63,326 nt of DNA, from assembly GCA_947588945.1 (NCBI GenBank), contig CANPZY010000005.1, positions 1 through 63,326 on the forward strand, written 5' to 3'. A program made the translations under genes and the position numbers. This DNA is from an uncultured Clostridia bacterium. Its GTDB lineage: Bacteria > Bacillota > Clostridia > TANB77 > CAG-508. Of the stretch, positions 10,886-14,116 are shown piece after piece. The notes below the pieces were generated by a model. It searched no databases and had not been told where the DNA came from. It saw only the letters and a program-made list of their open reading frames with translations. Within the stretch, counting starts at the first letter, position 1. Each line of letters opens with the position of its first letter.

Positions 10886-13800
10886 ATGAGAATTTTATTT
10901 GCAGTAAGTAATGATAATATTACAACATCAGTTGTAAATAAATATCAACAAAAATATAAAGAAATAATTACAAGCAAAAATGTTTATTACTTTAATGCAA
11001 TAATAAAAGAATTACAAAAAAATAAATCCTATGACGCAATAGTTATAGGAGAAGATTTAGAACCTATCTCGAATAATAATTATGAAGCAATTGATAAATT
11101 CTTATTTGAAAAATTAGATGGAATAAGTGATGAGGCATCAAAACCTACAGGAGATGATATTCCAATAATCTTTATATGTTCTGATAGAAGATCAACTGCT
11201 GATAGATTACTTATAAAATTATTTGGGATAGGAATTTATAATGCAATAATCGGAAATGATAGAAGCATTGATACAGTATGTAATTTGATTAATAAACCTC
11301 GTAATAAAAAAGAAGCTAAACTTTATTATAAAATTGAATCAGAAGATGTTGGAATGTATGAAAATAGCAATGAACAAGATGTAAGTGAAACTGAAATTCA
11401 AAATATATTATCCCATTACAGAAAAATAGGTTCGAATGTAAAAAGATGTGTAGAAAGTTTTGACAAAATTGCAGAGCAATATAATGAAACACAATTAAGA
11501 GTTATAGTTAATTTTTTCCCAGCAGAAGTAAAAAGTATATTAGAAGAAAATTCAAATACTTATCGAAAACTTATGATGGGAGGAACAGTTTTATCAAATG
11601 GAAATTATTCTCCATATAACAGACAAAGTCCTAAAAAGCCGGGAAATTTAGATGTTTTAACTAAAGACCTAGAAAAAACAAATCTTTCGAAACCGGTAAT
11701 TATACCATCAACGATTAATATAAATAATAAAACCAATCAAAATTTTAAATCAAATGGATTAGTAAATCAAAATGTACCAAATAATACCCAAGTGCAAAAT
11801 AATGCACAAGTAACAAATAATATACAAGGAGTAAAAGAAAAAATGCAACCTCCAATAAATAATAATACAATGAATAATGGCAATAATTTCAATGGTAATA
11901 GTAATTTTGAAAATAATAGAAATTTAAATAATAATTATAATAATAACTTTAATAGTAATGTAAATAATAATAATAATAATAATAATAATAATAGTAACTT
12001 TAATAGTAATGCAAATAATGGTAATTATAACAGTAATTTTAGCAATAATAATATGAACAATGGACTTGTATATAATGGAAACGCAAATAATGCTAATACA
12101 AATAATATAAATAATACAAATAATAATAATTTGAATAATAACTTTAATGATAATTTATCTAGTAGTATAAATAATGACTTTGGAAACAACAACAATTTAA
12201 ATAGTAATTTCGAAGATAATAATGCTTATAGCAATAACAATGAAGTGGAAAAAGTTGTTCCGGAAATGGCGCAAAAAAGAGGAAGAGGAAGACCAAGAAA
12301 AATTATATCACCAGTAGTTCAACCAATAAATAGTTTAAGTACAATAAACAATACATCAACTGCAATATCTGAATTACCAACAATACAGCCAATGGATAAT
12401 ATGCAGAAAAGAAAAAGAGGTAGACCTTCGAAAAAATCTTTAGAAAATGTACCAAATTCATTAAATACAGAGTTAAATGAAAATAATAATATTCAAGAAC
12501 AAACGGCAGTAGAAAATAATAATCAAAATAATAATCAAGGAATAGAAAATCAATCATTTAATATACCTCAAGAAGATGTATTACCTGGTCTAGAAGAAAG
12601 CAACGATGCAGTTGATTTATTCAGCATGGATCCAATAGATGATAGCATAATGGATTTAGATGAAATGGACTCTAGTCAAAATGGAATATTGCCAGGATTT
12701 GAAAATGATATCGAGAATTTAAATAATAATTCAACTGAGACGAATAATACTAAAGAAGAAAAATCATTTGATGATAATAACTTATTTGATTTAGATATTG
12801 AAGAAACTAACACAAACCAAAATAATACAAATGTAGTAAACAATACAAATAATGATATAAATAGCAATCCATATAGTGATTTAGCAAAAGATACAAATAA
12901 TGTATATAATCAAAATAATTCACCTTATAGTTCACCTTATGGTGATATGAATACATCAATGTATGAAAGTGCAAATAGCTCGCCTTATGGTAATATGAAT
13001 ACACCAATGTATGAAAGTGCAAATAGCTCGCCTTATGGTGATATGAATACATCAATGTATGAAAGCACAAATAACTCACCTTATGGTAATATGAAAAATT
13101 CACAAAGTACGAATAATAATAGTTACGCAGTCCAAAGTAATGCACAAGATAATTATAATAGTCTAATGAATACTCAAAATCAAACAACTACAAATGTTAA
13201 TACTAATGTAATCGCTGGAAATGGAAAAATAGTTTCTTTTATAGGAACTAGCAAAAATGGAATATCATTTATAGTAAATAATTTATCACAACTATTATCA
13301 CAAAGTGGTATTAAAACAGCAATATTAGACTTAACAAAAAATAAAAATTCATATTATATGTTTACAGATAACGATAGTGCATTAATGAAAAAAGCAACAG
13401 AAAGTATGAAAAACTTATCTAAAGGCATTATAGATGGATTAAATGTAAATAAAAATTTAACAGTATTTACTTCACTTCCAGATGAAATTGAAATATTAAA
13501 TAGTGATGTAATGTTGCAAACACTATCAAACAACTATGAAATAATATTATTAGATTGTGATTATGATACAGATGTTGATTACTTTGTAAAATCAAATGAA
13601 ATATATTTAGTACAATCAATGGATACATTTACAATCCAACCATTAACGCAATTTTTAAGTAATTTGAAATTAAAAAATGCATTGGATGAATCGAAATTAA
13701 GAATAATAATTAATAAATATGTTAGATTAAAAAAATTAGATGAAAAAATGATTATAGGTGGAATGTCAAAATATAATGAGCCATCTATGACATTACAAAG

Positions 13801-14116
13801 AGATTTATTTAATGCACAGAACATAAAATATGTATGTATTCCATTTGAAACAGAAACTTATGCAAGATATCTTGAATCAATAGCAATGTGTAATCTAAGT
13901 TTAAATGGATATTCACAAACTTTCTTAAACAGCCTAGAAGAATTAAGAAGAATGGTATATCCACTTGTATCGGGTGGTTACAGCAATAATGCACAAAATA
14001 ATACAGAAGAAAAGCATGGATTATTTGGTGGCAAAAAATATAAAACACAACAATCAACACAATTTTCAAACAATGTAAATGATACATTAAACAAAATGAG
14101 AACAAATAATTTTTAA
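10886..14116 (+). CDS. multidomain protein: receiver-like N-domain, Asn-rich disordered region with two AT-hooks, degenerate ParA/MinD/TadZ-like C-terminal ATPase fold
   Basis: N-terminus MRILFAVSNDN ... YDAIVIGEDLEP ... IIFICSD has a CheY-like topology. AT-hooks KRGRGRPRK and KRKRGRPSKK. C-terminus GKIVSFIGTSKNGISFIVNNLSQLLSQSGIKTAILDL ... YEIILLDCDYD has a ParA-like layout with a non-canonical P-loop. Confidence 0.65.
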   Translation: MRILFAVSNDNITTSVVNKYQQKYKEIITSKNVYYFNAIIKELQKNKSYDAIVIGEDLEPISNNNYEAIDKFLFEKLDGISDEASKPTGDDIPIIFICSDRRSTADRLLIKLFGIGIYNAIIGNDRSIDTVCNLINKPRNKKEAKLYYKIESEDVGMYENSNEQDVSETEIQNILSHYRKIGSNVKRCVESFDKIAEQYNETQLRVIVNFFPAEVKSILEENSNTYRKLMMGGTVLSNGNYSPYNRQSPKKPGNLDVLTKDLEKTNLSKPVIIPSTININNKTNQNFKSNGLVNQNVPNNTQVQNNAQVTNNIQGVKEKMQPPINNNTMNNGNNFNGNSNFENNRNLNNNYNNNFNSNVNNNNNNNNNNSNFNSNANNGNYNSNFSNNNMNNGLVYNGNANNANTNNINNTNNNNLNNNFNDNLSSSINNDFGNNNNLNSNFEDNNAYSNNNEVEKVVPEMAQKRGRGRPRKIISPVVQPINSLSTINNTSTAISELPTIQPMDNMQKRKRGRPSKKSLENVPNSLNTELNENNNIQEQTAVENNNQNNNQGIENQSFNIPQEDVLPGLEESNDAVDLFSMDPIDDSIMDLDEMDSSQNGILPGFENDIENLNNNSTETNNTKEEKSFDDNNLFDLDIEETNTNQNNTNVVNNTNNDINSNPYSDLAKDTNNVYNQNNSPYSSPYGDMNTSMYESANSSPYGNMNTPMYESANSSPYGDMNTSMYESTNNSPYGNMKNSQSTNNNSYAVQSNAQDNYNSLMNTQNQTTTNVNTNVIAGNGKIVSFIGTSKNGISFIVNNLSQLLSQSGIKTAILDLTKNKNSYYMFTDNDSALMKKATESMKNLSKGIIDGLNVNKNLTVFTSLPDEIEILNSDVMLQTLSNNYEIILLDCDYDTDVDYFVKSNEIYLVQSMDTFTIQPLTQFLSNLKLKNALDESKLRIIINKYVRLKKLDEKMIIGGMSKYNEPSMTLQRDLFNAQNIKYVCIPFETETYARYLESIAMCNLSLNGYSQTFLNSLEELRRMVYPLVSGGYSNNAQNNTEEKHGLFGGKKYKTQQSTQFSNNVNDTLNKMRTNNF
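11963..11992 (+). repeat. (AAT)10 microsatellite encoding Asn10
   Basis: Ten uninterrupted AAT codons inside 10886-14116. Confidence 0.95.
12932..13095 (+). repeat. 48-nt in-frame tandem repeat, about 3.4 copies (SPYG[DN]MNT[SP]MYES[AT]N[SN])
   Basis: Units at 12932-12979, 12980-13027 and 13028-13075, plus a partial fourth. The units are nearly identical. Confidence 0.9.

Follow-up and report, generated by a model that had tools for sequence, protein, structure and literature searches.

Paired HMGA-type AT-hooks in the linker of a pseudo-receiver/MinD-fold protein family of uncultured Clostridia: a possible membrane-linked DNA scaffold

Introduction

ATPases of the ParA/MinD family involve a deviant Walker A motif with a signature lysine and a catalytic lysine, and their water-activating aspartate is D40 in MinD and D44 in Soj. 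TadZ carries a Walker-A-like K/RGGxGx[ST] motif without the canonical lysine, together with an atypical receiver domain (ARD) (bioRxiv 10.64898/2026.07.08.737194). BcsQ involves a G8VRGGVGTTT loop and a cysteine at the position of the water-activating aspartate, and with ATP bound it dimerizes as a sandwich and shows weak ATPase activity (PMC8892547). AT-hooks are considered rare in bacteria. Before SufR was described only CarD and WhiB7 had been counted, and all three proteins are transcription factors (2025 preprint). For the first AT-hook of human HMGA1, a crystal structure of the peptide in the minor groove of AT-rich DNA is available (8CPG), and its dissociation constant is about 1.5-6 µM on AT-rich DNA and >10 µM on (CG)4 (PMC11526092). 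Here, we describe a 1076-residue protein of an uncultured Clostridia bacterium, encoded in a 63,326-nt stretch of DNA (contig CANPZY010000005.1; hereafter the window), in which a pair of such hooks lies between a receiver-like domain and a MinD/ParA-fold domain. Our literature search found no description of AT-hooks in a SIMIBI/ParA-like protein and none of the present protein family.

Results

A conserved AT-hook pair in a variable linker

The gene has a GC content of about 26%, and the window as a whole ranges from 21 to 38%. A sequence-only reading had assigned to this open reading frame (ORF) a pseudo-receiver, an Asn-rich region with two AT-hooks and a degenerate TadZ-like ATPase domain. 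The ORF and every listed element (both hooks, Asn10, the GTSKNGIS loop) were located. The hook motifs were correctly recognized, but their nucleotide positions had been given 1 nt too low. Similarly, the middle of the protein is of low complexity, but it is shorter than the proposed 700 residues. Since the structured N-terminal part reaches to about aa 232, the linker comprises about 545 aa, and it is not featureless but involves conserved short motifs.

10886..14116, + strand: main gene, 1076 aa, ATG start, stop codon included
11582..12250, + strand: Asn-rich segment, aa 233-455, 42% Asn, net charge 0
11684..11707, + strand: motif LSKPVIIP at the linker start, consensus [LM][TS][KR]PV[IV]IP
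11963-11992, + strand: Asn10, aa 360-369
12275..12301, + strand: AT-hook 1, KRGRGRPRK, aa 464-472, identical to the nonapeptide of human HMGA1 AT-hook 1
12407..12436, + strand: AT-hook 2, KRKRGRPSKK, aa 508-517
12446..12985, + strand: acidic segment, aa 521-700, net charge -32
12581-12595 (LPGLE), 12614-12631 (DLFSMD), 12689-12703 (LPGFE) and 12779-12796 (NLFDLD), + strand: motifs of the acidic segment
12927..13095, + strand: 48-nt x 3.5 tandem repeat, about aa 681-737, encoding SSPYG[DN]MNT[SP]MYESAN (16 aa; TRF, 90% matches, score 275)

Both hook motifs are of the HMGA type, with a GRP core flanked by Arg or Lys, and the identity of the first one with HMGA1 AT-hook 1, which the sequence-only reading had given, was correct (PMC11526092). 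They are located within the sole basic segment of the linker (aa 456-520, net charge +10), and seven of the nine linker arginines sit inside the two hooks. For the two stretches of the window protein, the Pfam AT_hook profile yielded 16.5 bits (gathering score 17.4). Orthologues reached E = 6.2e-6, and one database fragment of the family carries a precomputed PF02178 match. When the linker was shuffled, the expected number of RGRP motifs was 3e-4 per linker, and none of 100,000 shuffles gave two or more. No further [RK]GRP or RGR[PK] was found in the stop-free segments of at least 100 codons of the window (22,726 residues). From the behavior of the identical isolated peptide, we infer that hook 1 may bind the minor groove.

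Among 110 full-length family members RGRP was the most conserved 4-mer of the linkers (79/110), whereas in shuffled linkers no 4-mer was found in more than 22. Exactly two copies were present in 26 of 29 full-length sequences, the window protein included. When 55 full-length cluster representatives were inspected, 42 carried two copies, two carried three, three carried one and eight carried none. The core clade (G[TSA][TS]KNG loop, 82 members) has exactly two RGRP motifs in 66 members and none in 10, and the motif is absent from 21 of the 28 members of a distant clade with a GANK-type loop. The hooks are usually spaced by 17-30 residues.

The remainder of the linker is far less constant. Compared with the closest relative, the end domains share 96-97% identity without any gap column, whereas the linker shares 74% with 93 gap columns. 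Linkers measure 42-608 aa in the genome-locus set and 55-767 aa in the 110-member set, and neither length nor composition is conserved. The window linker (aa 233-776) consists of 29.6% Asn and of AAT-rich tandem repeats, which agrees with its earlier description as Asn-rich and prion-like, but this character is lineage-specific. Orthologue linkers contain 8-31% Asn, some carry Glu/Lys-rich or coiled-coil-like repeats, and at the place of the 48-nt repeat they have different repeats rich in Met, Asn, Pro and Tyr. In the linker of one related locus (L003, about 6200-6700), charged repeats (ERIARERAEAEARRKEQ) that resemble a coiled coil or a single α-helix replace the Asn-rich tracts, and this example indicates that the spacer chemistry is free to change while the length of the spacer is kept. 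Besides the hooks, a few short motifs recur. PVIIP is found in 36 of 110 linkers (at most 8 for any 5-mer in shuffled linkers), and LPGF, NLFD and LFDL are enriched in the orthologues, with further conserved patterns reading LPG[LF]E and [DN]LFxxD. The same motifs occur in L003 and in two other related loci (L001, L005). The RGRP hooks are kept in homologues while the linker around them varies. Because the pair is conserved across a linker that otherwise turns over, its sequence pattern marks it as an element under selection, acquired in the course of the family's evolution.

The C-terminal domain has a MinD/ParA fold and a Walker A loop without both lysines

13223..13969, + strand: MinD/ParA/BcsQ-fold (SIMIBI) domain, aa 780-1028, from AlphaFold2 and Foldseek
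13244..13267, + strand: Walker-A-like loop GTSKNGIS, aa 787-794, family pattern GxxKxG[T/V/I/N][ST], canonical length
14018..14038, + strand: basic-hydrophobic motif GLFGGKK (EKHGLFGGKKYK)
14063..14113, + strand: terminal peptide FSNNVNDTLNKMRTNNF, consensus FS..[MVI]N.TL[ND][KQ]M[KR]..[YF], the end of core-clade proteins

Structure prediction supported the folds that had been proposed for the two ends of the protein, receiver-like and MinD/ParA-like. The C-terminal AlphaFold2 model (aa 780-1076, 35 homologues) had a predicted local distance difference test score (pLDDT) of 84.7 and a predicted template modelling score (pTM) of 0.79. When it was compared with the PDB using Foldseek, 202 matches at E<=1e-3 were obtained. 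The top matches were BcsQ (6yay, 6ybb), MinD, the ParA-family ATPase 3ea0, FlhG, Soj and FleN, all with a probability of 1.0, E-values of 2e-8 to 1e-6 and 10-18% identity. The scores of BcsQ, MinD, ParA and FlhG were indistinguishable. At the sequence level, the window protein yielded 22.6-22.9 bits with Pfam CbiA, which is under the gathering score of 25.4, and 17 of 35 relatives matched this profile at E<=0.01 (best 4.4e-6). The C-terminal family profile matched the SIMIBI tyrosine kinase (BY-kinase) CapB among the PDB sequences (E = 5e-4). Single-sequence searches of Pfam, NCBIfam and the PDB sequences with the window protein gave sub-threshold matches only, and a match to Ku80 (E = 0.006) was judged to be spurious.

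The loop does not follow the deviant Walker A pattern xKGGxxGK[ST], since both lysines are missing. In the 110 full-length members, position 7, the place of the canonical lysine, is occupied by Thr (98), Val (8), Ile (3) or Asn (1) and never by Lys, and position 2, the place of the signature lysine, by Thr, Ala, Ser or Gly. A lysine is found at position 4 in 106 of them. A weak hhalign match to E. coli MinD (20 columns), which was used solely for register, placed K11 opposite Thr, K16 opposite Ile, D38 opposite Asp and D40 opposite Thr without gaps. In segment numbering, this alignment sets Asp36 opposite MinD D38 and an invariant Thr38 opposite D40.

The loop had been called degenerate. The canonical lysine is indeed gone, but loss of ATP binding need not follow. 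Since BcsQ carries the same Lys-to-Thr exchange and still binds ATP, the domain is, by analogy, probably hydrolysis-poor rather than nucleotide-blind. An ATP-hydrolysis-driven cycle appears unlikely from the sequence, because both lysines are missing and the catalytic aspartate is apparently replaced by Thr.

Behind the fold, 42 of 112 members carry a GLFG-type motif within their last 50 residues. Distant-clade proteins end in KK.GLFG, RRGIFG or KKFFG, and the subclade of the window protein retains EKHGLFGGKK upstream of the terminal peptide. We take these basic-hydrophobic tails to resemble the membrane-targeting sequence of MinD and FlhG. The terminal peptide was modelled as a helix (residues 283-294 of the modelled segment, pLDDT about 53), and it is moderately amphipathic (hydrophobic moment 0.54, mean hydrophobicity about -0.2). 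It is probably a partner-binding or weakly membrane-binding element.

The N-terminal domain resembles a receiver

10886..11326, + strand: pseudo-receiver, aa 1-147, (βα)5 CheY-like fold, AlphaFold2 pLDDT about 70-86
11378..11581, + strand: helical bundle, aa 165-232, five short helices, AlphaFold2 pLDDT 83-87

In the N-terminal AlphaFold2 model (40 homologues, mean pLDDT 72), residues 3-136 form five β-α units with CheY/flavodoxin topology, followed by a disordered stretch and the helical bundle, which is confidently modelled at residues 168-231. Foldseek retrieved only CheY-like folds from the PDB (E 8e-4 to 1e-2), among them the CpaE ARD and RcsB/NarL. The tightest superposition was obtained with the CpaE/TadZ ARD (4n0p; TM-score 0.73, root mean square deviation (rmsd) 2.9 Å, E about 3e-3; also 4dn6). 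RcsB and NarL aligned over about 240 columns, covering receiver and helices, but the superpositions were poor (TM-score about 0.3, rmsd 11-16 Å). None of the 40 members matched Pfam Response_reg, which also holds for the window protein, and the N-terminal family profile found nothing among the PDB sequences.

Mapping onto CheY by eye placed an invariant Glu56 at the phospho-acceptor position (IVI[GS]E-DLEP vs FVISD-WNMP in CheY), replaced the acidic pair by Ser8-Asn9 and left no Lys after β5 (Gly123). The (βα)5 fold is present and the active-site quintet (DD, D, T/S, K) is not kept. Thus, as modelled, the domain is a pseudo-receiver in the sense of PMC12632262. The helical bundle is conserved, with the invariant columns …SEVEIQNIL.HY…G…F..IA.QY…QLR.I…LP…V…LEE…Y. 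It yielded no sequence match in PDB or Pfam, and aa 165-232 show no helix-turn-helix (HTH) signature. We rejected the idea that the protein is secreted or is a repeat protein of the cell surface, because it has no signal peptide and begins with β1 of a cytosolic fold.

Family and distribution

Homology searches yielded 307 homologues for the C-terminus and 544 for the N-terminus, and an exhaustive profile search returned 430 clusters (50% identity), of which 187 had E<=1e-30. All matches with an organism label came from metagenome-assembled genomes of uncultured Clostridia/Bacillota (rabbit 'Lapin' bins, Clostridium sp. CAG:793, a sheep jejunum bin). The remaining matches were metagenome contigs, one of them from compost. 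When a profile of the distant subfamily was run against a set of 5.8 billion proteins, 54 matches were obtained, none of them named and none bridging to canonical ParA, MinD or CpaE. The host of the window is a spore-former, since SpoIVA is encoded there (46257-47759, - strand, E = 1e-117, among the few minus-strand genes), and Spo0A, SipL and YunB are found in related loci. The family was found only in uncultured, spore-forming Clostridia of the gut and the environment.

When 31 loci were read anew, both ends of the protein recurred in full-length ORFs that span 551-1151 aa, and full-length orthologues were found in 26 genome loci. Public gene calls mostly split the protein into N- and C-terminal 'hypothetical' fragments of about 250-500 aa each. 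Runs of N in scaffolds were seen inside the linker of this gene in L001 (7413-9506), L003 (5440-9017) and L005 (6348-9209). The family is systematically under-annotated because such gaps in the repetitive linker split the gene calls.

Genomic neighborhood

10468..10881, + strand: upstream partner, 137 aa; a signal peptide or transmembrane (TM) segment precedes a variable exposed part, and the C-terminus is formed by two TM helices that end in LPLVFAIIVKGWRG
14140..15309, + strand: downstream partner with an N-terminal TM helix, a weak GAF-like region and a degenerate GGDEF domain
15323-15577, + strand: ireB (Pfam E = 1e-39)
15590-16015, + strand: ruvX (Pfam E = 3e-40)

The upstream protein, which carries the motifs …YS[IL]P[FI]C.[IL]G… and …LP[LV][IV]FA[IL][IV]V.GW.., had no Pfam or NCBIfam match. 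Its topology presumably is vaguely like that of VirB2/TrbC-type pilins. The GGAGG Shine-Dalgarno sequence of the main gene lies inside the last codons of the upstream gene, the two genes are 4 nt apart, and they are apparently translationally coupled. A small two-TM gene was found by tblastn directly upstream in 28 of 31 related loci. In the three exceptions, a broken gene intervenes (L023), the contig ends (L025) or the copy is divergent (L033). A divergent small membrane protein of the same topology is present in L033, where it overlaps the start codon of the main gene, and in L034 and L036.

The downstream protein scored 28.7 bits with Pfam GGDEF and 37.4 bits with TIGR00254. It reads RYMGPKF in place of RxGGDEF and does not carry the RxxD I-site, and the motif is also degenerate in L001, L003 and L005. 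Judging from these residues, the protein is probably neither a cyclase nor an I-site receptor of cyclic di-GMP (c-di-GMP). Its gene adjoins the main gene in 31 of 31 loci and in L036, and it is absent from L034. The order main gene, TM/GAF-like/degenerate GGDEF gene, ireB, ruvX was found in all 31 loci, often followed by DUF1292 or EF-P, and distant members retain the small membrane protein and ireB-ruvX. There was no terminator-like site between 10300 and 16200. A scan for promoters and terminators was uninformative (44 promoter-like sites vs 52 expected, no terminators). No tad, bcs, min or par genes were found nearby, no tadA/cpaF, tadB/C or flp beside the gene in more than 30 loci, and no Bcs gene in any locus. 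No cellulose or other synthase gene was syntenic across the related loci.

Several other features of the window were recorded. The GC skew is positive nearly throughout, and almost all genes lie on the + strand. Behind EF-P, a 222-aa ORF (16714-17382) has CPYC…CPQC and further Cys motifs (zinc-ribbon-like), an acidic Asn/Lys-rich tail and no Pfam match. It is syntenic and poorly conserved (31-53% in most loci, 88% in the near-identical L006). A 396-aa protein without Pfam match (17961-19151) has a type-IV-prepilin-like N-terminus (…GITLIALVVTIIILLILAGV…), a type IV prepilin peptidase (Peptidase_A24) is encoded 20 kb from it at 38559-39293, and no assembly ATPase was present among the ORFs scanned. 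FtsE-FtsX, two tandem PcsB-like proteins (coiled coil plus M23 peptidase) and a CtpB-like S41 protease at 40653-44910 constitute a duplicated cell-separation hydrolase module. An ORF6N domain fused to a PLD-like domain (1293-2186, 297 aa) may be of mobile-element or defence origin. Large ORFs (346-726 aa) without Pfam match at E<=1e-3 are located at 24827-26932 (- strand), 35755-37935, 3301-4341 and 4415-5770 (all + strand).

Discussion

The reading we prefer, which carries about half of our confidence, is that the protein acts as a modular scaffold, a dimerizing and hydrolysis-poor SIMIBI protein that is tethered to AT-rich DNA and also has a link to the membrane. If the analogy with BcsQ and TadZ holds, its C-terminal domain would bind nucleotide and form a sandwich dimer that is long-lived and hydrolyzes little nucleotide, if any. 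Such a dimer would unite four AT-hooks, so that hooks with affinities in the µM range could gain an avid minor-groove grip on a chromosome of about 26% GC, and the hooks would take the place of the surface by which true ParA proteins bind DNA in an ATP-dependent manner. The complex may be kept at the membrane by its C-terminal tails together with the two membrane partners. Support for this link comes from the adjacent two-TM gene with its overlapping ribosome-binding site, from the TM-anchored degenerate GGDEF neighbor and from the GLFG-type tails. The pseudo-receiver, with its phosphomimetic-like Glu, and the helical domain might constitute a module for regulation or for the docking of other proteins. 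The outcome would be a nucleoid-to-envelope tether or positioning hub and not an oscillating ATPase of the Min/Par type.

A bolder version, which we consider rather unlikely, holds that this is the first protein of the ParA/MinD superfamily to reach the nucleoid by eukaryote-type AT-hooks of a disordered linker and not by the surface of the ATPase dimer. It would then constitute a nucleotide-gated chromosome-membrane tether that, in these very AT-rich, spore-forming Clostridia, replaces anchoring of the Noc/RacA type or nucleoid occlusion in division or sporulation.

Several observations weigh against the scaffold reading. About one quarter of the family (21/28 distant, 10/82 core members) does not carry the hooks, and DNA tethering therefore cannot be what the ancestral protein mainly did. 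A classical amphipathic membrane helix at the extreme C-terminus is doubtful, since the terminal peptide is too polar for membrane targeting of this kind. The call of the N-terminal fold is of moderate strength, with a model pLDDT of 72 and Foldseek E-values near 1e-3. The conserved position next to ireB-ruvX may reflect history and not function, and every homologue is unnamed or labelled 'hypothetical'.

The chief rival reading, unlikely in our opinion, is that the locus instead encodes a regulatory module of the BcsQ/BcsE/BcsF kind, which sorts or activates a partner enzyme at the membrane for an envelope machine (a polysaccharide or cell-wall synthase) and in which the AT-hooks are a secondary add-on, for instance for coupling to transcription or the nucleoid. 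The BcsQ complexes 6yay and 6ybb were the best Foldseek matches, but they scored no better than MinD, ParA and FlhG. The exchange of the Walker A lysine for Thr and, as far as the weak alignment defines the register, the loss of the water-activating aspartate are shared with BcsQ, but no sequence-level link to Bcs proteins was detected. A degenerate receiver, a degenerate GGDEF and a small TM anchor are encoded together. However, the GGDEF protein does not carry the RxxD I-site that BcsE uses for c-di-GMP, and it is missing from L034. The neighbors ireB and a G5-SH3-glucosaminidase are related to the cell wall, and the hook-less distant clade suggests that hooks are not the core function, but no synthase gene, cellulose or other, is syntenic across the loci.

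That the protein is an architectural DNA-binding protein or global regulator comparable to HMGA or CarD, with a ParA-like domain that only dimerizes and an N-terminus that forms a NarL-like regulatory unit, strikes us as decidedly unlikely. Paired hooks followed by an acidic segment are found in HMGA1 and CarD, and the known bacterial AT-hook proteins (CarD, WhiB7, SufR) all are transcription factors. The long alignment with RcsB and NarL fits this idea, but the superpositions were poor and the helices at aa 165-232 have neither an HTH signature nor a Pfam match. Moreover, the hook-less members retain both end domains and the synteny, and the constant pairing with membrane proteins would be left unexplained.

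The sequence-only reading had likened the protein to TadZ. The layout, a receiver followed by a ParA/MinD fold, was borne out, but neither the Walker A pattern nor the genomic context agrees with TadZ. An orthologue of TadZ/CpaE that localizes a Tad/Flp or type IV pilus machine was rejected on these two grounds and is highly improbable. The domain order is identical, the tightest N-terminal superpositions were those on the CpaE ARD (4n0p, 4dn6), the canonical lysine is missing in both, and the window encodes a pilin-like ORF and a prepilin peptidase. In contrast, none of more than 30 loci has tad genes beside the main gene, TadZ keeps the signature Lys/Arg and GG in K/RGGxGx[ST] where the present family has GxxKxGT[ST], and profile searches never reached a named CpaE or TadZ.

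It is barely credible that RGRP motifs and Asn tracts alike are neutral by-products of an AT-biased, slippage-prone spacer, since for the hooks both chance and neutral origin are refuted by the shuffles (0 of 100,000 with two RGRP), by conservation (79/110 linkers, twice in 66/82 core members) and by the GC-rich codons that RGRP requires in a 26% GC gene, whereas for the Asn-rich tracts, with their AAT-rich repeats, unconserved Asn content and length shifts even between 96%-identical relatives, such an origin is likely.

A pair of HMGA-identical hooks that is conserved in hundreds of lineages within a protein of the MinD/ParA superfamily suggests that, in extremely AT-rich genomes, a positioning or scaffold module can be coupled to the chromosome by another route. 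The family adds a third kind of SIMIBI protein without the canonical Walker A lysine, beside TadZ and BcsQ. The co-encoded degenerate GGDEF, pseudo-receiver and small TM partners echo the Bcs module and hint at a recurrent design, a membrane-recruited SIMIBI dimer that is uncoupled from hydrolysis. Since assemblies break inside the linker, databases hold the protein mostly as two unrelated-looking fragments.

Comparison with known systems

The protein has the fold and layout of the ParA/MinD and TadZ families, but by defining motifs and context it cannot be assigned to either of them. TadZ/CpaE shares with the present protein an atypical receiver followed by a ParA/MinD fold and the absence of the canonical Walker A lysine. 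The present protein differs by its linker of about 545 aa with hooks, by an extra helical bundle and by neighbors (two-TM gene, degenerate GGDEF gene, ireB, ruvX) that do not form a tad locus. MinD, Soj (ParA), FlhG and FleN have the same fold, and a link to the nucleoid, as known for ParA, is proposed here. In contrast to MinD and ParA, the present family does not carry either lysine of KGGxxGK[ST], and its CbiA match stays under the cut-off. Contact with DNA is predicted to involve the AT-hooks of the linker, whereas ParA uses the dimer surface.

The actinobacterial proteins WhiB7 and SufR provide the precedent of a bacterial RGRP hook that enters the AT-rich minor groove. They carry a single hook on an Fe-S or winged HTH DNA-binding fold and act at specific promoters, whereas the disordered linker of the present protein holds two hooks, and no further DNA-binding domain is recognizable in the protein. 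In CarD of Myxococcus xanthus and in HMGA1, multiple RGRP hooks likewise lie in a disordered segment next to a highly acidic region. The hooks number four in CarD, where they adjoin the acidic region and a CarD_CdnL_TRCF domain binds RNA polymerase, and three in HMGA1, which is devoid of folded domains. Receiver-like domains, SIMIBI domains and membrane partners are absent from both, and the present protein comes from a different phylum, Bacillota.

When compared with the Bcs system, differences are found in each component. The BcsQ loop keeps RGG (GVRGGVGTTT), whereas the window protein reads GTSKNGIS, and BcsQ has neither a disordered linker nor AT-hooks. BcsQ belongs to an operon with bcsA/B and bcsR, which are absent from the present loci. 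The receiver-like domain of the Bcs system is fused to the degenerate GGDEF, whereas in the present family it is fused to the SIMIBI domain, and the degenerate GGDEF here is without an I-site. Homology at the sequence level was not detected. Nevertheless, the parts list of the present locus most resembles that of BcsQ/BcsE/BcsF. Both involve a SIMIBI/MinD fold with Thr in place of the Walker A lysine and, in a weak register here, a residue other than Asp at the water-activating position. The partners of BcsQ are a degenerate receiver, a degenerate GGDEF and a small membrane polypeptide, to which the fused pseudo-receiver and the two adjacent genes correspond here.

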